Positions 15,022 to 41,400 are shown, counted from the stretch's first letter. The stretch is 64,000 nt of DNA from a virus (IMGVR_UViG_3300033463_000041:32001-96000), one strand, 5' to 3'. Translations and numbers: made by a program. The notes: generated from the letters alone by a model not told the origin.

Positions 15022-15070
15022 CTACAGTGAAAATTAGTAACAACAAATAATCAATAAAACAATAAAAGCA

Positions 15071-15649: not shown

Positions 15650-15836
15650 GCCTGTCTGCAAACAAACCTCCAGCTTCTAAAGGTGTTCTTTCATTTTGTG
15701 GGCTATTCAGAATAAGGCATAATTCATAGGTTGCTCGTCCTTCATCCCAATGGATGCGGGAAAAATCAAAGACTGATGATGGCTTCCCTTGCGGATTCTT
15801 TCTTCTGTTCGTATCAGGCAGCAACCGCCATGAGGT

Positions 15837-16021
15837 TTTTCTTTCCTTGCTCCGGCAACGGTAACGGGACGTCGTGGAACAATCGCGGTTCGAACGGCAA
15901 CTATTGGGCGTCGTCATTGAACTCTTCTACGAATGGTCGCAACCTGAACTTCAATTCGGGTGGTGTCAATCCTCAGAACAACAACAACCGCTTCAACGGT
16001 TTCACCGTGCGGGCTGTTCAG
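15837..16021 (+). repeat. DGR template repeat (TR), part of the non-coding template RNA
   Basis: 17 AAY codons in the VR frame; immediately upstream of the RT; ends ...GCTGTTCAGCATT (IMH*) versus VR ...GCTGTTCAGTAAT. Confidence 0.97.
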
Positions 16022-16078
16022 CATTCTGTCTATCAGTGATGGCAACACATATAGATAAACATAAAAACGAAGGATAGT

Positions 16079-17266: not shown

Positions 17267-17277
17267 AGATTTTGAAC

Positions 17278-17850
17278 ATGAACAAAGTATCAGGAAATCA
17301 GAGCGACTTCGCCTATATCCGCGAAGACGGCTCGCGCATCATCATCAGCTATGGGCTGACGAAGATTGATGACAACCTCTATGAGTGGTACGAGGTCTAC
17401 CTCTACAAGAAGCAAGTAAACCAACTTACACTCCAGATGGTGAAAAAGGCCATCATCGCCGACATCAACGCACGTACCGACGAGAAGATCCTGTCTGGCT
17501 ACGAGTGGACGATACTGCATGGCGACGATGCAGGAAAGACCGTGAAGGTATGGCTGTCGGCAGAGAACAAGGAGAACTACAAGGCCAAGTACGATACAGC
17601 CAAGGACGATCCTGAACTCATCACATGGCCCTCTAAGTTCAAGGTGTCAGAGAACGACGACCTGACTCCAGTCTATGAGTATTTTGACAACGTCGCCGAG
17701 TTGAAGGCATTCTACTACGGTGGTCTGAACTACATCGAGCAGACCGTGAACGCAGGTTGGGCAGAGAAGGACGGCATCGACTGGGCACCCTATGAAGCCC
17801 TGTTCCCTGCAGCAGCTGCCCAAGAGCAATCAGGAGCATCATCTGAGTAA
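17278..17850 (+). CDS. Hypothetical protein, possible tail-fibre assembly / DUF4376-like
   Basis: INARTDEKILSGYEW...VWLSAENKENY pattern seen in fibre-adjacent Bacteroidales phage proteins; ATG 17278 preferred to TTG 17272. Confidence 0.5.
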   Translation: MNKVSGNQSDFAYIREDGSRIIISYGLTKIDDNLYEWYEVYLYKKQVNQLTLQMVKKAIIADINARTDEKILSGYEWTILHGDDAGKTVKVWLSAENKENYKAKYDTAKDDPELITWPSKFKVSENDDLTPVYEYFDNVAELKAFYYGGLNYIEQTVNAGWAEKDGIDWAPYEALFPAAAAQEQSGASSE

Positions 17851-23717: not shown

Positions 23718-24299
23718 TTAGTTGCTCGAATCAGATTCAACATCCTCGGCAATCTCACCGTAGTATTTCACAACGTCGTACACCTGGAAATTGCAGACGA
23801 AGTTGAAGGTTGTACCGTGCTCGTCGTTGCGGTTCTTACCGCTGTCGTTGGTACGGCTGAACACCACGTCGCCAGTAGGATTGCCGACGACCTTCCACTC
23901 CTTCTGTGAAGTGCCGTTCACCTTCTTGGTCTTGCCAGTGGGGAAGAACACCATGTAGCCACCGCCCATGTTGGAGAGACGGCGACCGAGAACAGCCATA
24001 TCGTCTTCGTTCTTGTCAACGAGACCTGTACCGGTGACGGTGTTGGCACCGCCCTCGCCATTGTCCTCGCTGCTGACCTGACCAGACTGGTTCTTAAAGG
24101 CGATCTTGAAACCCTTCAGGGTAGAGCCTGAACCACCCTTGGGAGTGATGTTGTACTGGTTCTTCTCATCGTTGATCTCGATGTTGCCCTCGATGTGGTC
24201 GCTGTCAATAGGAACGACCATGCAGTAGTTACTGGTACCGCCCGGATTCTCCGAGCAGTCGTTCGTCTGCTTAACGTGCTTTAAATTGCAAAGTCCCAT
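23718..24299 (-). CDS. Major tail (tube) protein, C-terminus EDVESDSSN
   Basis: CSENPGG N-terminal motif and DSGKNRNDEHGTTFNF typical of Bacteroidales phage tail tubes; follows the capsid gene. Confidence 0.65.
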   Translation of the reverse strand: MGLCNLKHVKQTNDCSENPGGTSNYCMVVPIDSDHIEGNIEINDEKNQYNITPKGGSGSTLKGFKIAFKNQSGQVSSEDNGEGGANTVTGTGLVDKNEDDMAVLGRRLSNMGGGYMVFFPTGKTKKVNGTSQKEWKVVGNPTGDVVFSRTNDSGKNRNDEHGTTFNFVCNFQVYDVVKYYGEIAEDVESDSSN

Positions 24300-24419: not shown

Positions 24420-25700
24420 TTAGATGCTGCTGTCAGAGTCACCACCGCCCTCTTCCTCGAACATAGCTACGAGAGTCACAACACCACCAGGGAAGGTGTA
24501 GTTGTAGGGGTTGGCAGTAGCGTTGTCGCTCCAGCCCTTGAACTTGTAGCCATCCTTCGGCGTAGCGGCAACAGTGATGATGTTGCCATCAGCATAGAGG
24601 TTCTTCTCACCAGAGGTGATCTCGGCAGTACCCTCATTCTCGTCGCTGGTGGCAACGGTGAAGATATCGGCGATGTAGTCGCCAGCGGGTACGTTGTTCG
24701 GGGTGTTCTCCTGGTCGTTGGTAGCGAATACCTTCGGGGAGTAGTCGCGGATACGAGAAGCCTGAGCGGTCTGCACCTGATAGTCGAACAGGTTGTGGTC
24801 GTCAGAGTTGCGCTCAACAGTGATGTCGGCCTGGCTCTCAGGACGAACGTCGCAGATGTACTCCAGTGTTCCGGGCAGACAGAAGATGAGCTTGTCGCCC
24901 TTACCCATAGAGGTGTGGGTGGTCAGCTTCAGGTTCTTCATCTGACTGAACTTCCAGCCATCCTCCAGAACGGTGACAGCCAGCTGCGGGTGCATCAGCA
25001 TGTAACCCTCGACAATCTTGTCAGCGAGGTCAGAGCTGACGTAAGCCAGCAACTCCTCGGCACCGCGAAGGTCGTCGTTCAGTGAGTTGTAAGCGGCCTT
25101 GAACCACTTGTAGGCAGCCAGAGAGTCGCTGGGAGCAGCGCCGGTCTTAATCAGGTTGCCGATAGCCTCGCTGATAATACCCTTGGTGATACCCTGGGCG
25201 ATCTTGGTGAAGATACCGTCGTACAGAGAGAGACCCAACTTCACCTGGTTCTCCGTGGTCTCGGGCAGGTTGGCGTTAGCCTCGTTGCCGAAGAAGAAGT
25301 TGGCGCGGACGTCCTGAGCGTGGCGATTGGCGATCTTCTCCAGCAGGAACTGCGTCTTCTCTGCGTTGTTGGTACCGTCGGGGTTCACGTGGAAGGGTTC
25401 CTTCTCACGATACTTCTGGACGTTGTCCTGGGGGTGAGTAACTGCGAGAATCACCTTTGCAGGGTTCTCGACAAACATACCGAGCTGTACCTTCTTGACG
25501 GCACCCTGCTTATACTGACGTGCAAGCAGACCCTTGTCATTGAAGAGGAACAGCTTGTCGATGTTCTCGACGTCGGTCGTGACAGTGATCTGGAGGTCAT
25601 CCAGCATCTTGTCATTCAACATGGAAGCGCGAGCTACCAGGTCGACATGCAGCTGTTCGGTAACAGTCTGCACTTGTGAGACATTGATTGCGTAAGCCAT
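24420..25700 (-). CDS. Major capsid protein with C-terminal InlB-B-repeat-like domain and GGGDSDSSI tail
   Basis: Directly downstream of the protease/scaffold, with its own promoter copy; LSLYDGIFTKI motif; ATPKDGYKFKGWSD B-repeat signature. Confidence 0.75.
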   Translation of the reverse strand: MAYAINVSQVQTVTEQLHVDLVARASMLNDKMLDDLQITVTTDVENIDKLFLFNDKGLLARQYKQGAVKKVQLGMFVENPAKVILAVTHPQDNVQKYREKEPFHVNPDGTNNAEKTQFLLEKIANRHAQDVRANFFFGNEANANLPETTENQVKLGLSLYDGIFTKIAQGITKGIISEAIGNLIKTGAAPSDSLAAYKWFKAAYNSLNDDLRGAEELLAYVSSDLADKIVEGYMLMHPQLAVTVLEDGWKFSQMKNLKLTTHTSMGKGDKLIFCLPGTLEYICDVRPESQADITVERNSDDHNLFDYQVQTAQASRIRDYSPKVFATNDQENTPNNVPAGDYIADIFTVATSDENEGTAEITSGEKNLYADGNIITVAATPKDGYKFKGWSDNATANPYNYTFPGGVVTLVAMFEEEGGGDSDSSI

Positions 25701-25810: not shown

Positions 25811-27736
25811 CTAACGGCGCTTGCTACGTGCCTTTGTCTCCGCGTCGCGCTTGCGCAGGGCATCGCGAATCTCCTCTGGAGACATGTTGGCATTCACGGT
25901 GCTACGCACGGTGCCAGTAGCCTCTGGAGCATCACCCGTTCCGTTGTCGGCAGGGATGCCACTGTCAGCGTTGGCCATAGGAGCGGGCTTACCAGCCATC
26001 TCCTTGAGCTCAGCCTTCAGGTCGCTAACCTGCTTCGTCAACTTGTCGACGTCCTCCTTCAGACCAGTGATGGTAGCATCACGCTCGGCAATCGTACCGT
26101 TGGCAGTCTCGATGTCCTTACGGGCCTGGTCGATGTCGGCCTGCAGCTGCTCGGCGGTATTCTTCTGACCGTCCAGCGACTCCTTCAATTCGGCAATCTC
26201 CTTGTCCTTGTCGGCAATCATCTGCTCTGCGTTATGCAGGGTTTCCTGAATCTTGTTAATCTCCTCAGTAGCAGCCTGTACGGCTTCCTCAGTAGCGGGC
26301 GCATCGGTTGGCTTTTCCTCCTCTTCGGCAGGTTTCTCCTCTGCGGGTTTCTCTTCCTCTTCGGCAGGCTTCTGCTCTTCCTCGGTAGCGGGTGCTTCCT
26401 CGGTGGGCTTCTGCTCTTCCTCAGCAGGCTTCTCTTCTTCGACAGCGGGTGCTTCGGTCGCAGGTGCTTCCTCTGCTGGCTGTTCCGTTGCAGGAGTTTC
26501 CTCCTGTGCGGCTGCGGCGGCTGCTTTAGCCTCCTTGGCCTTCATCTCTGTCAGCTTCTCTGTGAGGGTGTCAAGCAGAGGCTTATTGAGGAATGTACCT
26601 TCCTCTGTCACCTGCAACTCTTCCACTCCGAGAACCTGAGCGACAATCTGATACTTCTCGTCCATAATCGTGCTATTTTTTTGTGAAACATTGGTCTTGT
26701 TATCTGCAATATCGGCAATATGCTCAGCAGCGGCTTCTGCGCTTTTGAGTGCAGCTTCCATCGGATCTTCTTCATCGTCTGTCACGTCTGCAGGCTGTCC
26801 GATTTTACGGTTGGCGGTACGGGCGATAGGCTCTTCATCGCCGTTGGCCACGGCAAATGCGCGTGCCACCAGGTCGCCCAGCAGCATCTGTCCGTCACAC
26901 AGGATATCCATCACTTCGGATGCGTCGAATATCTTTCCGTCCAGATGCTCGTCGGTAGCATTAGGGAATGCTGCCTTCATATCGCTGCGGAACTCTGCCT
27001 CCAACTTGTCAAGTTCCTCAATCAGCAGCGTGGCATCGTCGTTCTCGGCAATGTCGCGATACTCCTTGTTCTTGTTGATACTCTTGGTAGCGTAGTACTC
27101 GCGGTAGGTCTCGCTGTCAAACTGATTCTTCTCACCGTTCTTGATAGTGAAGAACGCTGCCATAACGCCTACGCAACCCAACTGGTCCTTCAGGTTCACC
27201 ACGTAAACCTCGTCGCCAAACGATGTGAGATACTCACCAGCCGATGCACAAAGTCCGTCGATAAGCATATACACGCGCTGTCCACAGTCGTGAGCATAGT
27301 CGATAGCCTGCTGAAAATCGTTCTTAGCCCAAGCCGAACCGCCAGGGGTGTTAATCACCATGATATGAGCACGGCAGTACTTATTGTCGGCAGCCTCCAT
27401 CATCCAGTCGCGGATCTCCTTCGAGCCGTATGAGCAGGCATCGCCATTGCGTGTGATAGGTCCGTCTATGGGAATCACGTTCACAAACGGCTCCTTCATC
27501 TGGGCAAGCAGGTTGGAACCGTCCCAGTTATAACGAGGCAGCACCTCGCCGTCCTCGGTCACCTGAGCGTCGCGTATAACCTCTCCGTTCATACCGGCTA
27601 CCAGATATGGCTGCTTCTTCTCTACTGCACCGATGGCAATATGATTGTTGAAGTTGTGCATCAACGTAGGCAGCAAGCCGTGAACAAACTGCGGCATTAC
27701 CATCCAGTGCTTTGTTGTGAAAAGTTCGTAAATCAT
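25811..27736 (-). CDS. S49-family prohead protease fused to an acidic/coiled-coil scaffold region
   Basis: INTPGGS, DGLCASAGEY and GCVGV S49/ClpP-fold motifs; EEEKPA repeats and a long coiled coil. Confidence 0.85.
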   Translation of the reverse strand: MIYELFTTKHWMVMPQFVHGLLPTLMHNFNNHIAIGAVEKKQPYLVAGMNGEVIRDAQVTEDGEVLPRYNWDGSNLLAQMKEPFVNVIPIDGPITRNGDACSYGSKEIRDWMMEAADNKYCRAHIMVINTPGGSAWAKNDFQQAIDYAHDCGQRVYMLIDGLCASAGEYLTSFGDEVYVVNLKDQLGCVGVMAAFFTIKNGEKNQFDSETYREYYATKSINKNKEYRDIAENDDATLLIEELDKLEAEFRSDMKAAFPNATDEHLDGKIFDASEVMDILCDGQMLLGDLVARAFAVANGDEEPIARTANRKIGQPADVTDDEEDPMEAALKSAEAAAEHIADIADNKTNVSQKNSTIMDEKYQIVAQVLGVEELQVTEEGTFLNKPLLDTLTEKLTEMKAKEAKAAAAAAQEETPATEQPAEEAPATEAPAVEEEKPAEEEQKPTEEAPATEEEQKPAEEEEKPAEEKPAEEEEKPTDAPATEEAVQAATEEINKIQETLHNAEQMIADKDKEIAELKESLDGQKNTAEQLQADIDQARKDIETANGTIAERDATITGLKEDVDKLTKQVSDLKAELKEMAGKPAPMANADSGIPADNGTGDAPEATGTVRSTVNANMSPEEIRDALRKRDAETKARSKRR

Positions 27737-27829: not shown

Positions 27830-29020
27830 TCACTTTAGTTCCGGCGTTCTGTGAGTGGCCGGGAAACCGGTAAACAATTTGCGTCTGTTCTGCTCGCAGA
27901 CTGCCTTGCGCTGGCGCTCTGCTGCAGCTTCTGCGTTGGCTGCATCCTGTGCCTCCTTTGCCTCGCGGGCGCGTATCGCGTTATATATAGGTGTGTCTAC
28001 GGCTGCGTCGCCAAGAGCATCAATGTGCTCTTCGATGAAGTTGCAAGCCGTTGCCATAGCCTGCTGTGCATCAGTCATGGAGTCACGTCTTGCCAGCTTC
28101 TCTTTTACAGGAGCCAACTCCGTTCTTCGGCTTTCCACATAGAGGGCCAGTGCAGTACGAAGCATCGACAACAGCTCATCGTAGACCTCTGCGTCAACCT
28201 CCTTCGTAGCAGCACCATTGTTGGCATACGCCACCACTGCCTTCAGCAGCTTGCCGCCGATGCGTGGCTTCAAATAAGTATTCTGGCAGAAGCGGATATC
28301 TCTTACCAGTGCTACATACGCCATACGCTCACCCTTGATATCCAGGTATTCGTTCAGTACACTGGCCGTCTGGAAAAGCAAGTCCTTATGCAGGTAGTAA
28401 GCGTCAGCCTCCTGCCACTTCTCGGTAAACACCTTATCGCATTTGGCGTCAGCCTCCAAGAACAGCAGCAGTGAGTCTATGGCGCGGCCTGCACTCATGT
28501 AGGCATCCTTCACCACGTGCTCTATCTTCTTCTGGTCTGCAGGATCGTAGCCCTCTGCACTCACCTGGTTCATGCCACCGCCCTCGTTGAACGAGACCGT
28601 CAGCAAGCCGGCCTTGTGCGACAACATCTTGTAGAACACAATCTGCTGACAGATGCGCAGCAGTCTGACAGTCACTTGATCCTGCTTCGGAACATCCTTT
28701 TCCTCCTTTGCCTGGGCAGTACATGTCGGCTCAACCAAACCTGCCTGCACGCGGTCCATGCGTTCCGTCGCGTCGGCATAAGGCACTTTGGGGTCTTTCT
28801 TCGCCTTGCCAGTCGGCTTGATGGTCGTCGATGTGATGTCGCCGTATTCCTTGCGCAGTCGCTCATACTCGTTGCAGAGATGCTGATACAGCGTGGTGCC
28901 AAGCAACGGCTCCAGAGCCACCCGCTCTTCCTCTTCCACATAACCGTAGATTTGGTCGGGTCTGCTCCACCGTGCCGTAGGCATCAGCGATATGATTTCG
29001 TTTTCGCTTCGTATAAACAT
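27830..29020 (-). CDS. Probable head-tail adaptor/connector (DUF6712-like)
   Basis: Duplicated LEPLLGTTLYQHL / LKPRIGGKLLKAV halves and AIDSLLLFLE. Confidence 0.6.
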   Translation of the reverse strand: MFIRSENEIISLMPTARWSRPDQIYGYVEEEERVALEPLLGTTLYQHLCNEYERLRKEYGDITSTTIKPTGKAKKDPKVPYADATERMDRVQAGLVEPTCTAQAKEEKDVPKQDQVTVRLLRICQQIVFYKMLSHKAGLLTVSFNEGGGMNQVSAEGYDPADQKKIEHVVKDAYMSAGRAIDSLLLFLEADAKCDKVFTEKWQEADAYYLHKDLLFQTASVLNEYLDIKGERMAYVALVRDIRFCQNTYLKPRIGGKLLKAVVAYANNGAATKEVDAEVYDELLSMLRTALALYVESRRTELAPVKEKLARRDSMTDAQQAMATACNFIEEHIDALGDAAVDTPIYNAIRAREAKEAQDAANAEAAAERQRKAVCEQNRRKLFTGFPATHRTPELK

Positions 29021-29037: not shown

Positions 29038-29073
29038 GCAATATCGTGATTTCTAAAGAAAAAGTCAAGGGCA
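29038..29073 (-). promoter_or_regulatory. Phage-specific promoter motif (TGCCCTTGAC-N18-GATATTGC)
   Basis: The core doubles as the last codons and stop (TGC CCT TGA) of the upstream gene. Confidence 0.75.
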
Positions 29074-29931
29074 TTTTAAATACATCTTCCCATCCCCATA
29101 GCAGAACACAGGTTTTCCGCTAAGTTCGCAGATTCTCGCCGCCTGCTCGCGGTCGCTCTCGACAAACAGGGTTGCCCAGTCCGACTTCTTATACTGATGC
29201 GCCTTATATCTGCCCGGGTACGACGTGGCATTACGCTCTTCACGACTATCAGCCTGAAACATAATCAGGTCGTTATATTGTATGCCATGTCTTTTCAGCC
29301 ATCGCTCGGTGACATCCCGGTACTTCTCCAGCCTGTATGTAACGATGGCTCCAATCGGCGTGGTGGGCACCACCATCGGCACGGCATGTTCAAGGTAGTA
29401 CTCGTAGGCTTTGGTGTCACGCTCCGACGGCGGGTCTTGGCACAGCACGCCGTCAATGTCCCACATCATGGCCTGTGTCTTATGCGCATGATGGTGCATG
29501 ATGTTCCACTCATAGAGATACCACCGCTCGCCTGGCACGTAGATATCCTCCAGCCAGATGTTCACCAGTGCCTTGGCATCTCTGCCACGGGCAAAGACAC
29601 AGCCGAACAGAATGTCATATGGCCCTGCCATCGTAACCAACAGATTGCGCGCCCTGACAATGGCAGCACCGGTGTTGACGGTATCGTCTATCACCAGTAC
29701 TTTCCCCGGTCTTCCTCTGCCAAGCAACGTCTGTCTGTCACCGCACGACATGATGTTGCCGTCAAGGAAATCATCCAACGAGGCACATCGCCTGCCCAGC
29801 AACTCGGCCACCATCAGTGCGGCTATCATGCCAGAGCGCGGTATGCCGACAATAATGTCTACATCCTGCGGTATCTTCCATAGATTCCTGCGGATAGCGT
29901 CCGACAGGTCTTGATAACTCTTGTATATCAT
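29065..29931 (-). CDS. Phosphoribosyltransferase (type I) + HAD-phosphatase fusion
   Basis: IVGIPRSG and VLVIDDTVNTG (PRPP loop); WDIDGVLC (HAD motif I), IVTYR and FVESD; ATG 29931 preferred to 29970. Confidence 0.8.
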   Translation of the reverse strand: MIYKSYQDLSDAIRRNLWKIPQDVDIIVGIPRSGMIAALMVAELLGRRCASLDDFLDGNIMSCGDRQTLLGRGRPGKVLVIDDTVNTGAAIVRARNLLVTMAGPYDILFGCVFARGRDAKALVNIWLEDIYVPGERWYLYEWNIMHHHAHKTQAMMWDIDGVLCQDPPSERDTKAYEYYLEHAVPMVVPTTPIGAIVTYRLEKYRDVTERWLKRHGIQYNDLIMFQADSREERNATSYPGRYKAHQYKKSDWATLFVESDREQAARICELSGKPVFCYGDGKMYLKCP

Positions 29932-29960
29932 AGCTTGAACCTGAAACTTGAAACCTGCCA

Positions 29961-31460
29961 CTATGTCCACAGGGCTTTATGCTCCTCCAGCCACTCTTTC
30001 GGGTCCTTCCCTTTCCAACTGCCATGACCGAAATGCAGGGCATAAGGGTCTATGCTCAACTCACGGCGCGGCAGACCGTGGTGTCTCACATCCTCCAAGA
30101 ACCAGCATCCCGTGTCATACGCCTTGTCAGGAGTCTTGTAAGTCAGCGCCCACATCTTCGGAAAGTTGAAGTAAGTCACACCCTCCTCCTTCATCATCGG
30201 CACGTTGACAAAGCAGAGGAACGGCAACACCCTCTCAACAGTAATCCTGAAAGCCGACATGTGAGGCTTCACCTGTCCGACGAACGCCTGCGTCTTATCC
30301 CAGAAACTGCTGATATCCTGCTTGATGAGCACGTCAGAGTCCATCAGGATAAACGGGTTGCGACGCTTGTTCACCAGCCACTGCACCGTCCAGCAGTGCT
30401 TGGCCGATGCCCATCCGTTGCCAACGTCCACCTTATCCGGGAACTCCTTCAGCCATTCGTCGAAGTTGATGATCTGCCCCTTGGTATTGTCGAGAACCTC
30501 TACACCGTCCATCGGCTCAAACGGTCGCTTGTCGCTGTTGTCGAACACGATGATGCCAACACCAGGCGTATGCTTCTGCAGCGAACGGATGCAGCAGCGC
30601 GTCATCTCAGGTGTGTTGTAGTGGACGATGCACACCGTAATACGCTGCTCCTTGTTGCGCTCGAAGGCTTCCATGTAAGCCTGCTTCTCAGGCGTTGCCT
30701 CGTTATACTTAAAGAATCTTCCCTTGTACTTCTTTCGGAAAGCATCCATGTCAGGCTTGTTGCCAGTACCCTTCGTCCACTTGTTCATCATCCACTCCTC
30801 AATGGTTTTCGTGGCGTAGTGGTGCAGTGTGGCCACGTTGAAATCGTATGGCTGGAATGGCGATGCCTCGCAAGGCTGCCACGTGGCTGTATAGCAGCAG
30901 CGCGCCGTATCTGGAATATGCGGATTGCGTCCGTAGGAAATCTCACCAAGTCCACCCCTCACGATGCTCTTGATGTGGTTGTTGTTTGGGAAGTCATACT
31001 GCACAGCCTTATCCAGTGGCAACGGCTCCGTGAAACGCTCCTTCACGCCACGTCCGTCATCATATACCAGTCCGCAGTCGCCATAGCATTTCCAGTTTAC
31101 CAGCACCGTATCGGCACCAGTGCCCGTATAGAAAGCCAGCCACTGCTTCACAGTCATCACGCTGTTCACAGTCAAAAACTCGTCGAAGTCAAAAAACGCT
31201 ATCCAGTCGTACTGCCCACCATACAGGCGATACATTTCGTTATAGGCCGTGACCTGCACGCCATGCCTGTTTCTGTAGTCATGGATGCTGACCTTGTGCT
31301 CAACGATTCTGTCGCCGAGGACATCCTCGAAGTATTCCTCCCCATCGTGGTTGTTGTCACAGATGTAGATATGGTCAAACCCCAGTTCAAGGTAATGCTC
31401 GACCCATTCTCGGGCATATCTGTTCTCGCGCCGCCCGATGGCTACCAATGCTATCTTCAT
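29961..31460 (-). CDS. Two-domain glycosyltransferase (GT2/GT92-like + GT2-like)
   Basis: REWVEHYLELGFDHIYICDNN and WIAFFDFDEFL; second domain VCIVHYNTPE, VFDNSD and ILMDSDVL (DxD). Confidence 0.85.
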   Translation of the reverse strand: MKIALVAIGRRENRYAREWVEHYLELGFDHIYICDNNHDGEEYFEDVLGDRIVEHKVSIHDYRNRHGVQVTAYNEMYRLYGGQYDWIAFFDFDEFLTVNSVMTVKQWLAFYTGTGADTVLVNWKCYGDCGLVYDDGRGVKERFTEPLPLDKAVQYDFPNNNHIKSIVRGGLGEISYGRNPHIPDTARCCYTATWQPCEASPFQPYDFNVATLHHYATKTIEEWMMNKWTKGTGNKPDMDAFRKKYKGRFFKYNEATPEKQAYMEAFERNKEQRITVCIVHYNTPEMTRCCIRSLQKHTPGVGIIVFDNSDKRPFEPMDGVEVLDNTKGQIINFDEWLKEFPDKVDVGNGWASAKHCWTVQWLVNKRRNPFILMDSDVLIKQDISSFWDKTQAFVGQVKPHMSAFRITVERVLPFLCFVNVPMMKEEGVTYFNFPKMWALTYKTPDKAYDTGCWFLEDVRHHGLPRRELSIDPYALHFGHGSWKGKDPKEWLEEHKALWT

Positions 31461-31472
31461 GTCGTTATTCTT

Positions 31473-32414
31473 TTATTTGTCGTGTATGCCCAACTTCCTC
31501 TCAATCTCCCTGTGAACCGTCTCAGCCCTTACCTTCCAGTCGTAGATCTTCTCGTTGTCATTCAAGCAGACCATTCCCGCCTGCGGGTCACGGATAATCT
31601 CTGCCAGCCGCTGTGTCGGCGTTTCATGGTCGGTATAGTGCCTTGGTGGACGGTGCTCTACATACAAGCCCTCAAAGTGCTGGTACAGCATGTAGATATA
31701 GTGGTTGTAGCTTCGGTCGTTACGCTTCAGCGGCGACAGGTAATAGGTTATCTCGTCGCCATGCCTGCGCCATACCTCTTCACAGCTACTCTTCCTGATG
31801 GCAGCAAAGATATGCCCTGTGTCTGGCCACTTCGCCGTATAGTGCTTGCCGTAGCGCCCCGCTATCATGTTCAACTGATACATACACTTTCGTTGGAACA
31901 CATTCGGATTCGGCGGATATACCCGCTCCTTTATCCTCTGGCACGGCAAGAGTGTGCCGTCCGGTTCTGCCTGACGGAAAAAATCCTCCGGCTGCAGCGG
32001 ACTCAGCGGAAACATGTCGTCATTCCCGTAGATAAAGTATTCCGACAGACCAGGTATCTTATGCAGGAACATCTCAATGCACGGACTCGCAAAGCATGGC
32101 AGCATGTTTGCCGGCATAAACTCCCGATGGAACGCCACCCTCACCTCCGGCTGTCCTGTGCCTTGCGGTTCTGCCGTAATGTTCTTCATCCACTCCTGCA
32201 CCTGGCTTTCCTGTGCCAGCAGGATATAGATACGTCTGAGCCACGGCATAAACTTCATGCAGCACCTCACCAGCAGTTCCTCCGTACCCCACGAACGGAA
32301 ACGCTCACTCATGGTTGCATCCCCTACATGGAAGCGTTGGTATTCCCGCCGCCACTCAGGGTCAGCGGGAAATACCATCGGTATAACGAGGTCTATATTA
32401 ATATCTCTCTCCAT
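31473..32414 (-). CDS. Stealth-family hexose-1-phosphate transferase
   Basis: CR1 IDLVIPMV; CR2 KFMPWLRRIYIL...IEMFLHKIPGLSEYFIYGNDDMF; CR4 MVCLND. Confidence 0.88.
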   Translation of the reverse strand: MERDINIDLVIPMVFPADPEWRREYQRFHVGDATMSERFRSWGTEELLVRCCMKFMPWLRRIYILLAQESQVQEWMKNITAEPQGTGQPEVRVAFHREFMPANMLPCFASPCIEMFLHKIPGLSEYFIYGNDDMFPLSPLQPEDFFRQAEPDGTLLPCQRIKERVYPPNPNVFQRKCMYQLNMIAGRYGKHYTAKWPDTGHIFAAIRKSSCEEVWRRHGDEITYYLSPLKRNDRSYNHYIYMLYQHFEGLYVEHRPPRHYTDHETPTQRLAEIIRDPQAGMVCLNDNEKIYDWKVRAETVHREIERKLGIHDK

Positions 32415-35400
32415 GTCTCGTCACGTTTTTCTTACCCGTATCGTAGCTGTCCACCAAGCCACCCTTGCCGTACACGTCGAAGGTTGCCTTGATGCCGTTT
32501 GTTCGCAGGTCTTCCAGCAAGTCGCTCTGGCGGTCGATGCTCTCTTTCAGTGATATTACCTGCTCCATGCTCATGCTGGTATCGCCACCGCCCAGTGTGC
32601 TCTCTACCTCCTCAAACTCATCCAGATTACCTTCGGCAAAGGCTCGTATGCCACCACGTCCGACGGTTCTACGACGGGCAGGAAGGCGACCGCCGTTGTA
32701 TAGCGTCTGTATCGACTGCCAGATGCCGTTGTCGTCCATCTGCAGTTGTCGGGTAGTGTGCGCGTCGATGATGGCCTCCCTACCCTTCTCGCCTACCAAG
32801 TGGAACTCCGGCCCATTGGTAATGTGTGTCTTGGCGTTCTTACCCATGTAGCGGGCGCGGTACGTCTTACCGTCGGCACTATCCACGTTATACTGTCTGC
32901 CAGGCGTCAGCGTCGATGGATCCGTAAACTCATTCACGTTACCCTCGCCATACGTCAGCATACCAGTTGCCATACGACCAGCACCGACACTGGCACCAGT
33001 CACCTGTGCAATCTGACTCTTCGATTTCGCAATCTTCGAGACGGCAAGACCAACCAATCCACCAAGTATGGCAGTGATGGCAGCAAAAGCTGCTGCACCA
33101 CCGATAGGACCAAGTTGGGCAAAAGCCTTTGATGCTACGGCAGGTGTGTCGGCGGCAACCTGTCCCGTGTTCTGTGCTAACGAAGCCGTCAGCGCACTGA
33201 TAGCTGCCTGTCCTGCAGCCTGCACGGCAATCATCTCAAACTTCTGAGCCGTTGAAAGATTGTCATTCGACATGGCCTGATAGGCAATACCGTACAGGTT
33301 AGCTGCTGCCGTCATCTTGGCAAAAGCCGACTGTGCGCCAGATGATATCTTTTTGTCGGTCTGGTTCTCGCCCTGCTGTATCTTGCTCTGGTTGGCAAGC
33401 ACCTGACCAGTAGCCTTGTTGCTTGCATCAACCATACCCTGATAAGCATTCTGCATATTCTCCATACCGGCCTGCATGCTTTCCTCCGTCATCTGCCACG
33501 GTGGAGTAATGCCTGGTGTCTCTGCCAGGTTCTCTTGCATCTGCATCATAGCCTCCGTACCCTGCTCAGTGTACGACTGCCACATCAGCCCCATGTTCTC
33601 CTGACCCTTGACAATATCCTCGTCGGTCATCTGCCACGGAGCCTTATAGGTTGGTGCTTCACCACCGTTATTCTCTTCAGGTCGGCGTATGGAGTTTGGC
33701 ACACCGTCTTCTCCTACGCCCATATCGCCCGAACCTTCTGTTGCAGGAACACCACCCATTGCCGATGTCAGCGCATTGATGGCGGCTGTGTTGGCTCCGA
33801 GTGCTGCCGTGTTCAGGTCTACGCTTTGGCTCTGAAGGAAAGCGTTCATCCAGTCGGTGATGCTCTCCGACATCTTCATGTTGATGTCATCCATAGCCTT
33901 GCTCCACGCCTCTGCCTGTGCGTTCTGCTGCTCAATCTCATGCTCACGCTCCAAAGCCTGACGCTCATCAAGGTATTCATAGTGGGCCTGTGCATCGCTG
34001 GTACCCGCATTGTCAATGACAACGTAGGTGCCTGCACCGGGACCGCCCTTGCCCGTCAAGTCCATCTTGGCGCGCTCGTTATAGTAATCGGCATTGCCGG
34101 CGTTGGATGCCTCGAAGATGCTTTGCAGGCTCGAAGACAACAGATTGCCCCACTCCTTCAACTCGGTATAGAGTCGGTTCTGAGATTCCTCAACCTTTGC
34201 CGTCAGTTCCTCTTCCAGTTTCAACAGTTCAGTTTGCTCCTTAGTGGTAGCCAGATTGAGTGCCATCTGAACATGCTGTGCATCTTGGCTCTTGCGCTTG
34301 GCTTCCTCCAACTTGCCCTGCGCTTCCAGTTCTTTCGACTGCTGTTTCAGTATCTCTACCTGAGCCAGTCCGCGTTTACGCATCAGATCATAGTATGCCT
34401 TCTGCATCGACATCTGTACCTGCATCTGCTTGATGGCCAACTTGTCGACCACACGCTCCGATGCCTGTCCAGCACCGATGAGCGAGTTTGCACGGCTTAC
34501 CCTACCCTGCTCAATGCCAAGCGTCGAGATGGTCTTGTCGAAAGCCTGCTTCATGGTGGTCTCGCCGTCAGGCATGAGGATATTGTTCCACATGATTTCG
34601 GCTTCCTTCTTCAACTGCGAGGCTTCCTTCTTGATAGCATCCTGAATGGTGTCAAAAGTAGAGCGCAACTGTGCCATCAAGCCCTCCTGCATCTGCGGAT
34701 TCTGCTTCATCTCCTCCACCCATGCCGTCAGTCCGGCTTCGGCGGCACGCTGCATCACCTCCTCGGCAGTTGTCGAGTAGGCGTTTTCAGCCTCGCCCAA
34801 CAGGAACGTCATTTCCTTAAACGCCTCTTGGGCTTGCTTCTCGTTGAACTTCGTCATGTCGGCATTCTTCGCCATCAACTCGTCGCGCTCCTTGCTCATG
34901 TGCGCCGTCAGGATACCCATAGTCGTGAGGTTTGTCTGCAGGTCCTTTGTGATGCCGTTGAACGGACGTTCCTTGTCGATGATATCCTGAATGGCCTTCA
35001 TGTGCTGACCGATGGCGTTGCGCTGACGCAGGAAGTCCTGCTCAATATCCTTATCCAGATTACCATAGATGCGGTCCATAGCGGCCTTGCTCTTCTTGCC
35101 GACGTCCTCAATGAACTTCACCGTCTGGGCAATATCCTGCCTGATAAAGGATGTCGTTTCGCCAGTACGCTCCGATATGATGTTGAAGATAGCCTGTTGT
35201 TCAGTCTTTGTCACTTCTGCACCCTTCTTGGCATACAGCTGCTGCAACTCGGCACGGCGCTGTCGCCACTCGGCCTCATTGGCAATGGTGCGGTTGCGTG
35301 CCTCTGCCTCGCTGATTTCCTCGTCGTTCTGAGCTTCCTGTATCTTCGCCTTACGCTCGGTATAGTAAGCATCCAACTCGTCCAGGTAATACTTCATCTC

Positions 35401-38400
35401 GTCTCTCACCACGCGGCTTGCTCTACGCTGTGCTTTTGGGTCGAGCCAGTCGCCGGTGTTCGTCAGGTGCTTGGCATGAAGTGCATCTTGTATTTTCAGT
35501 CGTTCTGAGTTATACCACTCAATGGCGTCATTGGTGGTCTTGATGTTCTTGCGCACGGCGTCGCTGATGAACTTCGCATCCTCCGACAATACCGCCTGTA
35601 CGTCTGCACCGTTGGCCAGAGCCTTTACGCGCTCCAACATCTCCTTACGACGCGCCACAAGGTCGTCACCGTTCCACTCAGAGTACGGAGAGGTCACTTT
35701 GTTATAATCGCCATAGGGGTTGGCATTTTTGCCACCGGGGCTGTAGTCAGCCTTTTGGATAATCTTACGATACTCCTTCAACTGCTCGTCACTCAGAAGC
35801 CATGACTCAGCCACTTTGCGCTGCGCCTCGTCCAACTGTTCTCCACTGGCTTGCAGTGCGCTGCGTAGCGCATCCTGGTCGGCCACGAACTGACGGACCT
35901 GTTCTACATTCTTCTTGTCAATGTCAGGCTTCCATCCTGCAGGTGCCATCTGCTGTTCGGGCGTTGTCTCACGGGTCTGCTGCCAAGGAGCATTCCATCC
36001 TCCTTGCTGCTGACCGCCAAACAGGTTAGGAATGTTGACGCCACTACCGCCGCCTTGCGGCTGAAGCATCGGCGGTGTGTTCTGTTGCTGCTGCTTGATG
36101 TTCCTCACAGCATTACCAACCGTGCTGGCAACCTTGCTGACAAGCGTGTTAATATTGTTGGCAAGGTCATACTTGATGGCTCCCTGAATACCGCGCAAGT
36201 CAGAGCGCATGTTTGCCGTCTGACTCATAATGTCGTTATGCTGGTCTTTGGCGTCGTTCATGTACGTGATGAGTGCAGAACGAACACCGCTGACACTCTT
36301 CTTTGACAGTTCACCGTCGGCAACCAGTCGCTCCAGGAAACCATTGAGTTTATTGTTGAATTCCGGTGCAAGAACGATGCCACCGCCCCAGCGTTTATCA
36401 ATCTTCTCGATGTTCTGATCGACAAGGCTCTTCAAACTGTCAGCAATCCTCTCGACGTCGGTACCGCTCTTTGCGCCAGAGCGTACACGGCTGACAATCT
36501 TTCCGTAGTCGGCACTCAGGTCTTCGTCGTATTCCTCTTGGATTTTCTTCTCCTTCTCGGCAATACGACGCTCGTAGGCTTCTTCCCTGATACGTTTGGC
36601 AATCAGGGAATGGGCATCTGCCAACTGGATAGCAGATGAAGTCTCGCTGAGCATATAACCCAGATACCTGCCGTACTTATCATTAATCTGCTTGATAAGG
36701 TCAAGGCGCTCCTTCTGTGCAAGGTTAGACTTATTCAACGGGTCAAACAGACTGTCAAGCACCTTCTTCTCGTCGGCCATCTTCTGATGGAATCGTCCAA
36801 CCTCTGCAGCAGCTTCCTTGGCGGCCTTGTGCCATTCCCACATTTTCATAGCCAGCATGGCGATAGCAGCGATGATTGCTCCGATGACGTTCTGCTTCAT
36901 AGCCAGATCCATCTTCTTCCACTCCATTCTTGCCAGTCGTGTACGTGCTGTAACCAAGCCCAACTTCTCGCCTAAGACACCAAGCGACGTTCCGATGCCA
37001 GCCATACCAGCCATCAGTGCTGTTGTCAGCGTCTTAAAACCACCGCCAATACCCATAAAGGCTGCACCTATCTGCAACTTCATAGCAGCGGCGTAGGTCA
37101 GCATCAATTTGAAACCAACGGCCAATGGGCCATCAGAGGCAAACCAGTCGGCCAGTGTTCGCAGTCCGTCGATGATTCTACCGAGGAAACGCTGCGCTGA
37201 GTCACTGACAAACCATTCTTCTATGCTGTTCTTCAGTCGCTCCCACTTGGCTGCCGTGGTTTCATTCATATTGTTATACTCGTTCAGCAGGGCCGTATTC
37301 TGGCGATAGGCATTATTGGCAATACCAAGTTGCTTCTCCAGTTCGTCCACGTTCTGCGACAGAAGACCAAACACGATACCGGCACGTGCGCCCTGCTGGT
37401 TCAGTTCCTTCATAACCTCCTGCATGGTGGCGTTCTTTCCCAGCATCTCTTCCACGTGGTCGGCCATAGCGTTCATGCCTTTCTCCGTCGATGTGTCATA
37501 CTGCTGAACACTCTCACGCATCTTTTGGAAGATAAGCACCATAGCATCCATAGCACGCCCACTATTGAACATGTCTTTCAGAGACTTCTCTGTCACGCCT
37601 ATAGCATTTGCTACTGCAAACGAGTTATTGCGGATTGCAGGAATCATTCGTGACAATGCCGTTGCCGACATCTCAACGCGACCACCCAACGCATCGACGG
37701 TAGAACCCAGAGCAGCCACCTGGTCAATGGTGATGCCTGCCTGAGCACCTACGGCACCGACACGCTTCACGAAGTCGGTAATGGCTGGCGCGGTAGATGC
37801 ACTGTTGGCACGCAGTTCGATGATAGTAGAACCGACGCGCTCAAGTGTTTCTTGCACGTCGTCACCATTGCGCTTCAAGTCGCCAGTTGCCTTGGCAATC
37901 TTCATCAGCTCAGTAGCCGATTCCTCACCCATTTCAGGCAGGGCAACCATCAACTGATTAGCGGCTTCTGTGAATCCTCGTATGTCCTCCTGTGCCTTCA
38001 AACCCAACTGACCGCCACGTGCCGATATGCTGAGCAGCTGTTCTATCGGTGTGCGCGTATCAAGTTTCGTCAAGTTGTCTGACAGTCGCCCTACTTCATC
38101 AGCCGTAAAGTGGGTAGTCTTACGGACTTCACCCATCTTGTCCGAGAGCGTCATAAGATCACCCATCGTTGACGTAATCTTCTGCATGGCGACGGCTGCA
38201 CCGACGTACAGACTGATATAGGTCTTCAGTCGGCCCCATGCCTTATCGAAGGCAGACACCGTACCCTTGGCAGAATTTCCAAGGGTCTTCATCTCCAGGT
38301 CGCAGGCTTTTATCTTCTTAGCCAGTTCATCGAAAGCCTTCTGCCCTTCTTTGGTGGTGCGGTCCATGCTCTGCAGTTTCAGACGGCCCTGCTCTACGGC

Positions 38401-41400
38401 CTGCTTCAACTCGTTGTACGAACGGCCTTTAGGACGGTCAAGCACTTCCTGAACTTCCTTGCTGATGGTGTTGACGCGCTTTAACTCTATGTTGATACCG
38501 TCGATGTCGCGCTGCAATTTCTGCCACGACCTACCGCCCTTCTCCACGCGCTGCTGCAGTTCTTCGAGCACTTTCTTAGCCTGTTTAAGCTCTTCGGTAC
38601 TACCACTGAATGAACCGCCACGCACCTGCTTTCCGATGGTGACGGCCTGACGCAGCGACATAGCCTGCTGTGCGGCTTTCTCTGCCGACTGCCCAGCCTT
38701 TATCAGATATTCGTTGATCTTGGCGATGGTGTCGGCATTATCCTTCTGTGGCAGGGAGTCGCGATATTTCTTTAGCGCATCGGCCTGCTTTTTTATCTCG
38801 TTGGCACTGGCGTTCTCATCCTTGCCATCCTTAAAGAAATTGAAGGCTTCCTGCCCCTCAGTCTTAATAGCCTGCTCCTGTAACTGACGCACACGCTTCA
38901 GGTCTTTCTCATAGCGTGCCAGACTGGCTGCTGCCGTATTGGGGTCATCAATCAGTCGCTGCCAGTATTGCTCCTGTGCTTTCAGTGCCGACGCCGACAA
39001 ATCCTTTGTGTTGTACAGCTGCTTGCGCATCATCGTGTCATTCTCCTGACGCTTGCGGGCAGCATCGGCGATGGCTTGTGCCTCCTTGCGGGCTGCACGT
39101 TCGGCTTCTACTCCGTATTTCTTGATGTGCTCCTCAGCATCCACGATGGCAGTTTTCAAGCGCTGATACTCCGGACTCGTAGCTGCCAACGTCTGCTGAT
39201 ACTGCTTGGCGGCTTCAATGGCGTTACGGATACTACCCTCACTCATCAGCATCTTATTGCCGTATATCTTCTGAGCGTCGGTCTTCACCTGCTCTGCGGC
39301 CAACTTCTGCTGTTCGTGGACGATAGCCTCCATATTTGCCTTGGCATCTATGTATGCCTGGCTGGTACGCTCGGCACCGTCCATCTGCGCCTGCCAGTAG
39401 CGGCGTGTTTCTTCCAGACCGGCATCCGACAGCTTACTGAGATCGACCATGCGGTCTTTCATCATCTGCAACTGCGCAGCAGCTTGCTGTGCGCTACGGG
39501 CGGTTTCCAGTCCGTATTGCTTCATGTGCTCTTCGGCACGGATGATGTTATTCTGCAAATCTGTATATGCTGCATTGGTGGGCTTCATGGTAGCCAACAG
39601 TTGCTTTGCAGCATTTACCGACTCCTGTAACTCAGCACCCGACAACGTTCTCAGGTTCTTACGACCCAGACGGTTGGCACTTGCTTCAAGTTGTGCCTGA
39701 GTCTGTTTCTCCTGTTCGGCATTGATGCGTTTCAGGTTGCGTTCTGCTTCCTTGAAGGCACGGCTTCCACGGGTGGCACCGTCCATCTGTGCCTGCCAAT
39801 AACGCTGTGTTTCAGTCAGCCCCTCCTTCGACAGACGGTTGAGTGCCGACATGCGGTCCTGCATCTGCTTATGCTTCTCGGCCAACAACTGCTGGGCTTC
39901 TGCCTGTTTTTGCGCTGTGCGCGCTGCCTCGATGCCTGTGTCCTTCAGGTGCTTCTCGGCCTTAACGATGCGCTCGGCCAGTTGGTTGGCTTCGTCGCTA
40001 CCGCTCTTATAGGTCTGGATGAGTTGCTTGGCGGCTTCAATGCCCTGGCGTATCTCGGTCTCGCTCAGCGTACCCAAGTCGTCCACCTTCAGGCGGTCGG
40101 CGATGGGTTGCGACAGCTTGGCAACCTCGGCATTCATCTGCGTCAGTCGCTCGCTCAGTCGGTTAATGGCGTCGCCACGCTCCTGCATGGTCTTGGCATC
40201 GGTGGCCTCAGTCTCAATCTTCTTCTTCAACAGTTCGATGGCCTGCTTCACCTTCTCGATGCTGACGTTCTCCGACTGTGCCATCTCGATGGCGGCCTCG
40301 GTCTCCTTGCGGTTCAGGTTGGTGATGGCCTGTGCGTTCTGGTCGAAAGCCTGCGTCAGGTCGTTGATTTCCTTTTGCAGGTCCTCAGCCTTCTTGCGCA
40401 TCTGCGTCATTTCTTCCTCCGACTTACGTTCAGGAAGAACCTCACGCATGGTGGTGTTGATGGTCTCGTCGCTGCGGTTGATGACGCGCTGGGCATTTCT
40501 GCGGTCTTTCGTGGCCTGGTCGCGGGCTTCCTTCATCGGGCCCATCTTCTGCAGTTCCTCGTTATACTCGGCCTGCTTCTGAGTGAGGCGTGCGGTCACG
40601 TCCGACTGCTCTTTCTCAGCAGCCGTCTCGCTCTTCGTCATCTTCTCCAGTTCCTCCTGGGCCTTTCTCAACTGCTCCTTCTTGGCAGCGAGTTTGCTAT
40701 CCAGATCCTCTCGGCGTTTCAGCAGCTGCTCCATCGTCATCTCTGCATCGGCAGACTCCTTCACGGCCTGCGTCTGCTCCTGAGTGGCTTCGGCATTCTT
40801 CTTGGCAGCCTTGGCACCCTTCTCCTGCAACTGTGTGAGGCGTTCGGTGTTGCCGGCCTTCTGCTGCTCCAGAGCGGCTATCTGTTCGTCGATTTGCTTT
40901 TTCTGCTGGTCAACGCTGACGTTATCTTTCTTCGCCTTGGTATTTGCCTCGGTAGCCTGAGTCCCGCTCTTCACGGCCTGGTATTCCTCCCATGCAGCCT
41001 TGGTGCGCTCCTCCTGCTTCACCACATAGCGCTGACGGTATGTCTCGGCATCGTCAAGTGCCTGACCTCTGGCAGTGCGCTTGCCGTCCTTCTCTTCAGG
41101 GCCGCCTATGGCGTTGGCCTTGTCGAGACGCTTCTGGTATTCCTCTTTACGCTTTCTGAGGGTTTCGTCTTCCTGACGGTATGCCTCACGCAGGCGTTTC
41201 ACCTCTTCCTCCTGAGCCTGGTCGGCAGCAGTTTGCTCCTTGGTGGCAGCGGTAACACCCTTCGAGATGTTGGTAAGTTCCAGCATACGGGCACCGCGCT
41301 GCTTCAATGCCTCTGGATCAACGGTGACTTGCAGGGCACCGAACTCCTTGTCGTAAACGCCCCTCTGAATCAATCCACCGTTCTTGCCGGTAACGAGGCG

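Follow-up and report, generated by a model that had tools for sequence, protein, structure and literature searches.

A candidate virion-glycosylation cassette within the structural operon of a ruminant-gut phage

We examined a cassette of three sugar-handling genes in a 64,000-nucleotide stretch (IMGVR_UViG_3300033463_000041:32001-96000; hereafter the window) of a 117-kb phage record, 98% complete, from ruminant guts. Consistent with a first-pass annotation of the sequence, three tightly packed minus-strand ORFs lie at 29065-32414, between a 3789-aa tape-measure-like gene (32398-43767, minus strand) and the head genes. The upstream ORF matched tape-measure PHROGs (phrog_28 at 8.8e-29 and phrog_167 at 1.6e-15 over residues 1591-3037), and its stop at 32398 is overlapped by 17 nt by the ATG of the first cassette gene at 32414, whereas the other junctions are 12 nt apart or overlapping. 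Relatives keep the order tape measure, cassette, 396-aa gene, protease, capsid. However, the label "head-tail adaptor" for the ORF at 27830-29020 has no support because its only hit is a PHROG of unknown function. Similarly, the claim that the genes are transcribed from a single late-type promoter is not shown: promoter-like sites do exist on the minus strand at 46658-46697, in the 99-nt gap upstream of the 588-aa gene (44876-46642) that heads this block, including TTGATA-16-TAAAAT at 46685-46658 (10 of 12 matches), but such sites are not more frequent than in shuffled sequence (15 against 11.6 +/- 3.2), and co-transcription is inferred from the tight packing only.

We next investigated the domains of the three encoded proteins. 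The first ORF (31473-32414, 313 aa) is a Stealth-family hexose-1-phosphate transferase homologue: it matched Pfam Stealth_CR2 (PF11380) over residues 38-149 at 87.4 bits against a cut-off of 39.4 (8.8e-25), and residues 6-287 aligned with residues 2-280 of the solved Stealth enzyme CpsY of M. tuberculosis (8j2n, E 2.3e-17), including the LP.F.S..IE..LH.IP.LSE.F.Y.NDD.F block and the terminal C-L-N-D motif. Matches to GNPTAB catalytic domains were also obtained at about 1e-13, and 435 relatives were found in the protein collection. Compared with these enzymes, the phage protein is minimal, has no membrane or accessory domains and is encoded beside structural genes. The second ORF (29961-31460, 499 aa) is a probable double glycosyltransferase. 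Its N-terminal GT-A-type domain (30675-31460) matched Glyco_tranf_2_4 (PF13704, 3.9e-14) and GT92 (PF01697, 2e-5), has 33-34% identical stretches in 15 Prevotella Lak megaphage records and is replaced by a DUF4422 domain in other cassettes. Its C-terminal glycosyltransferase-like domain (29961-30668), which we call GTX, matched Glycos_transf_2 only weakly (0.09) but carries FDNSD and LMDSD motifs that are invariant in 6 sequences. GTX is a phage-specific family; the nearest Atlas clusters are all viral (one has PF00535 on 20% of its members), and it accompanies Stealth in most cassettes.

The third ORF (29065-29970, 301 aa) encodes a phosphoribosyltransferase (PRTase) and HAD-phosphatase fusion, the likely start of which is the ATG at residue 14 (window position 29931), where its 285-aa homologues begin. 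The Pfam Pribosyltran match over residues 21-134 (1.7e-4) scored 21.3 bits, below the cut-off of 26.3. However, an AlphaFold model (pLDDT 92.8) shows two alpha/beta domains, the top Foldseek hits of which are XGPRT (4.7e-7), and the family profile matched GpT-1 at 7.7e-8 and the Pnkp1 phosphatase at 0.0036. Consistent with these results, residues 158-243 matched PHROG polynucleotide-kinase/phosphatase families (3.6e-10). In 39 sequences, D171, D173 and G174 (DxDG), T211, K256, E271 and S272 of the HAD domain are invariant, as are D96 and G101 of the PRPP loop, with D95 nearly so. Interestingly, this large uncharacterized family, with 564 confirmed matches across species-representative bacterial genomes, sits in bacterial polysaccharide loci: in 80 genome loci, the recurrent neighbors are Bac_transf, OEP, Wzy_C, GT2, GT4, ABC_tran+Wzt_C and a methyltransferase. 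In phages, the gene is embedded inside Stealth/glycosyltransferase cassettes of 5 distinct viral contigs. The arrangement has the two-step logic established for PRPP-dependent ribofuranosyltransferases, namely CriT/CrpP of Hib Bcs3 (PMC10299916) and the bipartite gPRT-PRP enzymes (PMC11127046), in which a PRTase-like PRPP-binding domain is joined to a HAD phosphatase and the cytoplasmic enzyme is encoded among glycosyltransferases. It differs in that the PRTase domain is small and resembles purine PRTases most closely and in that the domain order is PRTase then HAD, whereas in Bcs3 the phosphatase precedes CriT. No sequence link to solved CriT or gPRT chains was found in a profile search of PDB sequences at E up to 10, and membership of this class is therefore open.

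We next searched for transmembrane segments and transport genes. No membrane-like segment was detected in any of the three proteins: the maximum Kyte-Doolittle(19) values are 1.17, 1.18 and 1.71, compared with 2.08 for a control protein of the window, and the 1.71 stretch is a modeled strand plus helix of the PRTase core. Further, no GtrA, Polysacc_synt (flippase), canonical GT2, integrase or thymidylate-synthase-like hydroxymethylase gene was found in the 117-kb record.

The first-pass annotation had inferred from the window alone that a cytoplasmic pathway modifies Ser-rich tails of virion proteins, and we therefore looked for such tails. The probable major capsid protein (24420-25700, minus strand, 426 aa) follows the protease/scaffold gene (phrog_53), carries an InlB-B-repeat domain (Flg_new_2) and ends ...GGGDSDSSI, with a Ser-rich C-terminal tail (EEEGGGDSDSSI, codons 24423-24458). 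Its core is 71-76% identical among relatives, whereas everything after ...LVAxFE is hypervariable. There was no PHROG hit, and its identity as capsid rests on gene order only. A 193-aa structural protein (23718-24299, minus strand) ends ...ESDSSN (codons 23721-23738), and its homologues in relatives that carry Stealth end ...EESSD, ...AASSN and ...AAESSSSQK. It is possibly the tail tube, although the nearest named Atlas clusters (tail tube PF25595 and TP901-1 major tail protein, at 0.86) provide a lead only. Both proteins are candidate acceptors, although the tails are short (DSDSS and SDSS) and not poly-Ser. A scan of all 364 ORFs of at least 80 aa in the record revealed a further candidate, a 212-aa ORF of unknown function in the tail-fiber region (12438-13076, plus strand) ending ...ADSSSSNSSN.

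We then ran the check named in the first-pass annotation, phylogenetic co-occurrence with the Ser tails. Of 70 deduplicated, scorable capsid-centered loci from two other phage lineages (MCPa and MCPb), 14 of 14 capsid genes ending in a poly-Ser tail have a Stealth gene nearby, compared with 5 of 56 without a tail (Fisher test 6e-11, although the rows are not independent). In MCPb, 7 of 7 tailed capsid genes have Stealth plus GTX, and 0 of 30 untailed ones have any cassette gene; in MCPa, 7 of 7 tailed ones have Stealth, and 21 of 26 untailed ones have no cassette gene. To account for relatedness, we used trees built without the tail columns. MCPb gave 4 independent pairs, all in the same direction. 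MCPa gave 4 pairs differing in the tail on well-supported branches, and Stealth went the same way in 4 of them in 140 of 200 pairings, in 3 in 53 pairings and in 2 in 7 pairings, and never the opposite way. Together this is about 8 of 8 contrasts (sign test 0.008). In another lineage than that of the window, the cassette also lies among structural genes, in the order capsid, four small genes, c2, cassette, c8, c12, tape measure. The protein c2, a probable tail tube on the basis of a weak lead and gene order, ends ...SSSSE or similar in all 7 MCPb and all 7 tailed MCPa loci and also in locus L061, and a third protein, c21, gains a tail in 3 Stealth-positive loci. The tails use mixed Ser codons, indicating that they are kept at the protein level and are not slippage repeats.

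In the lineage of the window, Ser-rich tails and Stealth also go together wherever the records are complete. Records L193, L205, G001 and G002 have both, and the complete 140-kb G005 has neither. G004 has a tailed capsid gene and no Stealth in its 32% fragment, and many records are fragments. The association is not without exceptions. Four Stealth-positive lineages (the L009/L023/L008 group, L092, L007 and L082) show no Ser tail on the capsid protein or on c2, L013 has the full cassette with a tail on c2 but none on the capsid protein, and L063 and L077 have a GT2_4+GTX gene but no tails. More distant large phages with Stealth (L024-L030) show no clear tails within 10 kb, the only pointer being a 130-aa ORF beside Stealth in L026. 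Overall, the results support the interpretation in the first-pass annotation, as Ser tails on the capsid protein, the probable tail-tube protein and a third structural protein appear and disappear together with a Stealth gene in three structural lineages.

The three genes therefore probably form a cytoplasmic, late-expressed pathway that glycosylates the short Ser-rich C-terminal tails of the phage's own particle proteins (capsid, probable tail tube and possibly others) before or during assembly, although no glycan, phosphate or mass shift has been measured on any of these proteins, and the acceptor, the phosphodiester link, the sugars, the order of steps and the benefit to the phage are inferred. 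In the proposed pathway, the Stealth enzyme transfers a hexose(NAc)-1-phosphate from a UDP-sugar to a hydroxyl, most likely that of Ser in the tail, giving a Ser-O-phosphate-sugar link, or otherwise to a sugar already placed there. The N-terminal GT-A-type domain and GTX of the 499-aa protein would then extend the chain, and the PRTase domain would add ribofuranose-5-phosphate from PRPP, with the HAD domain removing the 5-phosphate to leave a ribofuranose cap or branch. The result would be a hydrophilic, partly anionic glycan brush on head and tail.

An alternative that could also accommodate the tails as acceptors is that Stealth is not the primer: GTX would first O-glycosylate Ser, and Stealth would then add or polymerize hexose-1-phosphate on that sugar, like a capsule polymerase or like GNPTAB acting on mannose, so that the protein link would be an ordinary O-glycoside. 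Characterized Stealth acceptors appear to be sugars, the solved relatives are GNPTAB and an exopolysaccharide enzyme, and GTX accompanies Stealth in 13 of 14 tailed loci. Conversely, tails occur with Stealth as the only cassette gene in L047/L048 (59% complete) and L061/L062 (35% complete), and GT2_4+GTX without Stealth occurs without tails (L063 and L077); because both Stealth-only records are fragments, this evidence is weak, and we regard this alternative as possible but doubtful.

It is unlikely that the cassette instead modifies a host surface polymer (capsule, LPS O-antigen or a teichoic-like polymer) to block superinfection or to stop progeny from sticking to debris, as in serotype conversion. 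Bacterial Stealth enzymes do make capsule and exopolysaccharide phosphodiester links, CpsY being named an exopolysaccharide phosphotransferase, and the bacterial PRTase-HAD loci and the four untailed Stealth-positive lineages are in keeping with this view. However, phage Gtr-type serotype conversion (GtrA/GtrB/Gtr*) needs a lipid carrier, a flippase and a periplasmic GT-C, none of which was found in the 98%-complete record, nor was an integrase; all three proteins are soluble, the genes lie inside structural operons in unrelated lineages, and the link between the cassette and Ser tails would remain unexplained. Hypermodification of phage DNA, by sugar or sugar-phosphate on a modified base or by ribosylation through the PRTase, is very unlikely. 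Glycosylation of phage DNA appears to be well established, and the PRTase domain is closest in fold to purine (xanthine-guanine) PRTases, but the 98%-complete record has no thymidylate-synthase-like hydroxymethylase, the cassette sits in the structural rather than the replication module, the bacterial PRTase-HAD homologues are in glycan and not nucleotide loci, and the link to protein Ser tails is again not explained.

Virion glycosylation has so far been shown by experiment only for mycobacteriophages (Che8, Corndog and Myrna; Freeman et al. 2023, Cell Host Microbe), in which phage-encoded glycosyltransferases modify the phage's own capsid protein (PMC11256854, PMC13445384, PMC12363180) and the glycans seem to sit on the C-termini of capsid and tail-tube subunits, which is where the Ser tails lie here. 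The hosts differ (ruminant-gut Bacteroidales-type against Actinobacteria), as do the enzymes: in tblastn searches of the three proteins against 50,697 phage records, one (P0002) hit only Prevotella Lak, Synechococcus and one uncultured phage, the other two (P0001 and P0003) hit nothing, and no mycobacteriophage was hit. Further, the genes lie here inside the structural operon, whereas in the cluster F1 relative Maravista they lie near the 3' end of the genome (PMC11256854). Sugar-1-phosphate linked to Ser in Ser-rich stretches is known from protists (GlcNAc-1-P-Ser of Dictyostelium proteinase I; bioRxiv 10.1101/2025.09.30.679562, and the reference list of PMC6994554), in a eukaryotic, secretory-pathway system, and nothing comparable is documented for phages. 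More tentatively, if Stealth puts hexose-1-phosphate directly on the serines of these C-terminal tags in phages of gut and rumen Bacteroidales, modular glycosyltransferases extend the chain and, in this phage, a PRPP-dependent enzyme caps it with ribofuranose, then this would be the first protein phosphoglycosylation system in the bacterial and viral world, the first use of PRPP as a donor on a protein-linked glycan and a portable tag-plus-enzyme pair for decorating protein assemblies.

The data point to a second virion-glycosylation system with different chemistry, which, if real, changes how phage particles should be pictured in gut ecosystems (surface charge, protease and antibody shielding, adhesion and recognition by defense systems), provides a genomic marker (a Ser tag plus Stealth) for finding glycosylated virions, offers a short peptide tag with its cognate enzymes for glyco-engineering and assigns a testable role to the PRTase-HAD family. 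The system is spread over several lineages of abundant ruminant-gut phages, and the sequence of the window or close relatives occur in runs of more than a dozen studies.

The window is bases 32001-96000 of a 117,146-bp virus record that is rated as 98% complete by CheckV, and at 29065-32414 of the window three minus-strand ORFs lie head to tail. The first of these (31473-32414, 313 aa) is a Stealth-family protein, with a Pfam Stealth_CR2 score of 87.4 bits against a cut-off of 39.4, and it aligns over residues 6-287 with the solved M. tuberculosis enzyme CpsY (E 2.3e-17) and with the catalytic parts of GlcNAc-1-phosphotransferase. The second (29961-31460, 499 aa) has an N-terminal GT-A-type domain (Glyco_tranf_2_4 at 3.9e-14 and GT92 at 2e-5) and a C-terminal half, here called GTX, which Pfam barely recognises (GT2 at E 0.09) but which keeps invariant FDNSD and LMDSD motifs and whose nearest protein-atlas clusters are all viral. 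The third (29065-29970, 301 aa) joins a PRPP-type phosphoribosyltransferase domain to a HAD phosphatase domain, and its real start is probably residue 14, where its 285-aa relatives begin. Although Pfam Pribosyltran scores below its cut-off, an AlphaFold model with pLDDT 92.8 matches xanthine-guanine PRTases (Foldseek 4.7e-7), and a profile of 39 family members matches archaeal purine PRTases (7.7e-8) and the Pnkp1 phosphatase (0.0036). The PRPP-loop aspartates are invariant or nearly so, and the HAD DxDG, Thr, Lys and Glu-Ser positions are invariant. None of the three proteins has a membrane-like segment. The window region, the Stealth protein and the PRTase-HAD protein have no match among 50,697 deposited phage records.

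The Stealth start overlaps by 17 nt the stop of a 3789-aa ORF (32398-43767, minus strand) that matches tape-measure PHROGs. This tape-measure-like ORF sits between the 588-aa gene at 44876-46642 and its two small followers on one side and the head protease and capsid-like genes on the other, an unusual place for a tape measure; relatives have 2327-3338 aa versions, and one relative (locus L199) has no such gene at this position. Downstream of the cassette follow a 396-aa gene of unknown function (27830-29020), a head-maturation protease fused to a scaffold-like C-terminus (25811-27736, minus strand; phrog_53), the two parts being joined by a long acidic Pro/Ala/Glu repeat region, a 426-aa protein with an InlB-B-repeat domain (24420-25700) and a 193-aa protein (23718-24299). 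The first-pass annotation, which had placed three sugar-handling genes between the tape measure and head-tail adaptor genes, therefore stands, and only its 'head-tail adaptor' label and its single late-type promoter are unsupported: the sigma-70-type promoter scan, which does not cover Bacteroidales promoters, was not above shuffles. Sequencing runs gave no conclusion on transcription, because one run on record as RNA (X24) holds only short contigs on parts of the stretch, two others may be DNA, and contigs cannot show transcription. An 837-aa open frame running antisense to Stealth+GT (29979-32492, plus strand) was rejected as a gene, and similar long antisense frames lie over the tape-measure-like gene. 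It is a shadow of codon usage, because TTA, CTA and TCA occur 0 times in the 812 sense codons (6.3 per 1000 across the operon), so that the complementary frame has no stops.

The 426-aa protein lies where a major capsid gene is expected and ends ...EEEGGGDSDSSI. An AlphaFold model of this protein, made with 8 sequences, reached a pLDDT of only 42.7. The 193-aa protein ends ...ESDSSN, and its nearest named atlas clusters are tail-tube families at 0.86, which is a lead only. We next searched IMG/VR with the Stealth protein, which gave 30 loci, about twenty of which belong to a different, siphovirus-like group with a conserved gene order: portal and large terminase on one strand, then genes c11, c9 and the major capsid protein (phrog_29), four small genes and a roughly 188-aa gene, c2, followed by the cassette, c8, c12 and a tape measure protein (phrog_9959). 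In this group the cassette is Stealth plus a DUF4422 glycosyltransferase plus GTX, often fused into one ORF of about 740 aa, and the capsid protein and c2 end in runs such as ...SSSSSSSE and ...GSSSSE. By its place before the chaperone-like genes and the tape measure, c2 is probably the tail tube. PHROG and Pfam searches gave nothing for c2, c8, c12, a further protein, c21, or the window's 193-aa protein, and hhalign of the window's capsid-like and 193-aa families against the profiles of the two comparison capsid lineages (MCPa and MCPb), c2, c8 and c21 found no relation (probabilities below 1%).

To determine whether the serine tails and the cassette occur together, we collected capsid-centred loci with two capsid alignments, using patterns from the conserved core, and scored every locus with HMMs built for the five cassette domains. 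A tail was defined as at least 5 Ser in the last 12 residues. A capsid match was present in 173 loci, giving 142 distinct capsid sequences, of which 72 were set aside because the gene was cut or less than 6 kb lay downstream; among these are ten tailed capsid genes on contigs too short to show a cassette, and locus L013, which has a full cassette, no capsid tail and a tail on c2. Of the 70 scored, lineage MCPb gave 7 tailed loci, all with Stealth and GTX, and 30 untailed loci, none with any cassette gene. Lineage MCPa gave 7 tailed loci, all with Stealth (6 also with GTX), whereas its 26 untailed loci comprised 21 with nothing, 1 with GTX only, 2 with Stealth only and 2 with both. Taken at face value, 14 of 14 tailed against 5 of 56 untailed loci with Stealth gives p = 6e-11, but relatives share traits. 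Therefore, we built trees without the tail columns. MCPb shows 4 changes of each trait and 4 independent pairs, all in the same direction. MCPa shows 5 changes of the tail, and among pairs that differ in the tail, Stealth went the same way in 4 (140 of 200 pairings), 3 (53 pairings) or 2 (7 pairings), and never the opposite way. Together this is about 8 of 8 (sign test 0.008). The c2 tails follow the same rule, and c21 gains a tail in three Stealth-positive loci. In contrast, the 'GSGS' end of c8 occurs with and without Stealth and is not part of the pattern. The tails are written in mixed Ser codons and so are maintained as protein sequence.

In the window's own lineage, capsid relatives 71-78% identical keep a nearly invariant core and a hypervariable end. 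One such locus, L193, has a fused Stealth+GT2_4+GTX gene after the tape-measure-like gene and the tails ...SESASSDSGSSN and ...EESSD, and another, L205, has Stealth, PRTase-HAD and GTX and the tail ...ETASSESSASSD. Two loci without a cassette within 10 kb turned out to have a Stealth gene elsewhere in their records, G001 (complete) and G002. The complete 140-kb record G005 has neither tail nor Stealth, and neither does G003 (66% complete), whereas G004, a 32% fragment, has a tail and no Stealth in that part. In the window's record two further ORFs of unknown role end in Ser-rich tails, namely 12438-13076 (plus strand; ...ADSSSSNSSN) and, more weakly, 17272-17850 (plus strand; ...QSGASSE; phrog_19239, unknown function).

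Overall, we consider it likely, from sequence evidence alone, that the cassette glycosylates virion protein tails, although not every locus conforms. Four Stealth-positive lineages (the L009 group, L092, L007 and L082) have no tail on the capsid protein or c2, L063 and L077 carry a GT2_4+GTX gene far from the capsid gene and have no tails, and large phages with distant Stealth genes show no clear tails nearby. Stealth in phages may therefore have more than one target. On the other hand, in two more distant phages the small ORF just upstream of the Stealth cassette ends ...ENSSSSSY (L026, 8849-9241, plus strand) and ...DWDNDSSE (L006, 6566-7021, plus strand), which suggests that the pairing reaches beyond the lineages tested. 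The alternatives of serotype conversion and DNA modification do not explain the tails. Serotype conversion needs carrier and export functions, and no GtrA, Polysacc_synt flippase, canonical GT2 or tyrosine integrase is found in the record; of note, the L007 record, a Stealth-only relative of the MCPa lineage, is classed as a provirus (85 kb, 80% complete), so that lineage includes temperate phages. DNA glycosylation of the known kind needs a hydroxymethylase, and no thymidylate-synthase-like gene is present.

With regard to which enzyme touches the protein, Stealth is the only cassette gene next to tailed proteins in loci L047/L048 and L061/L062, and no GTX was found in the available parts of those records, which are 59% and 35% complete. 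A search for GTX in the whole records of five loci with Stealth alone found it only as a fragment in one record, but because all five records are 10-80% complete, absence is not shown. GTX without Stealth occurs without tails. This favours direct transfer of sugar-1-phosphate to Ser, a link known from Dictyostelium proteinase I (bioRxiv 10.1101/2025.09.30.679562; PMC6994554). However, the records are fragments, and the opposite order, in which a glycosyltransferase acts first and Stealth second, remains a possible, if less likely, alternative.

The PRTase-HAD fusion lies inside cassettes of five distinct viral contigs and of two rumen Bacteroidaceae MAG contigs. The family is large, with 1156 proteins at E <= 0.001 and 564 confirmed matches in species-representative genomes, and is uncharacterised and widespread in Bacteroidota, Alphaproteobacteria, spirochaetes, Pseudomonas and others. 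In 76 of the 80 genome loci kept it occurs without Stealth or GTX. Its recurrent neighbours are an initiating sugar transferase, an outer-membrane protein, a Wzy_C protein, GT2 and GT4 enzymes, an ABC transporter with a Wzt C-terminal domain and a methyltransferase, and in the bacterial loci (L206-L282) it is nearly always embedded in Wzy- or ABC-transporter-type polysaccharide loci. It is therefore a glycan-pathway enzyme. Published work shows that cytoplasmic enzymes add ribofuranose to glycans from PRPP in two steps, in which a PRTase-like domain transfers ribose-5-phosphate and a HAD phosphatase removes the 5-phosphate (PMC11127046; PMC10299916). The fusion has both parts with intact motifs, so it most likely works this way, but homology to the characterised catalytic domains was not detected among the top Foldseek hits or in the PDB profile search, which returned purine PRTases and not CriT or gPRT, and we therefore do not assign it to that class.

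The closest known system is virion O-glycosylation in mycobacteriophages Che8, Corndog and Myrna. The logic appears to be the same, in that the phage's own enzymes act on the C-termini of capsid and tube subunits, but the enzymes are unrelated, as judged by searches of deposited phage records, and the chemistry is probably different, with a phosphodiester link and ribofuranose. Literature searches found no description of Stealth enzymes acting on phage particles, or of relevant serine-rich glycosylated capsid proteins, although the word 'stealth' is mostly used in another sense in the literature, making this weak evidence of absence. What the window adds is a third structural lineage, a cassette placed between the tape-measure-like gene and the head genes, and the PRPP-dependent module.

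Several leads point to a Prevotella-type host but are not proof. A 92-kb contig binned with a Prevotellaceae MAG carries the same phage, with 96% identity in the PRTase-HAD gene, and a capsid relative is named under Prevotella sp. Further, 15 Prevotella Lak megaphage records of about 540-550 kb encode a 33-34% identical relative of the N-terminal GT domain (residues 2-230). Runs containing the stretch are bovine, sheep and other gut metagenomes from 18 studies, of which one may be the source.

The window also contains a diversity-generating retroelement at 13850-17266 (plus strand). A reverse transcriptase lies at 16079-17266 (phrog_1423, 1.1e-78) and is followed by the Ser-tailed ORF at 17272-17850. 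A 185-nt template repeat at 15837-16021 pairs with a variable repeat at 14748-14932, the 3' end of ORF 13850-14935, and 22 of the 23 mismatches fall at adenines of the template.
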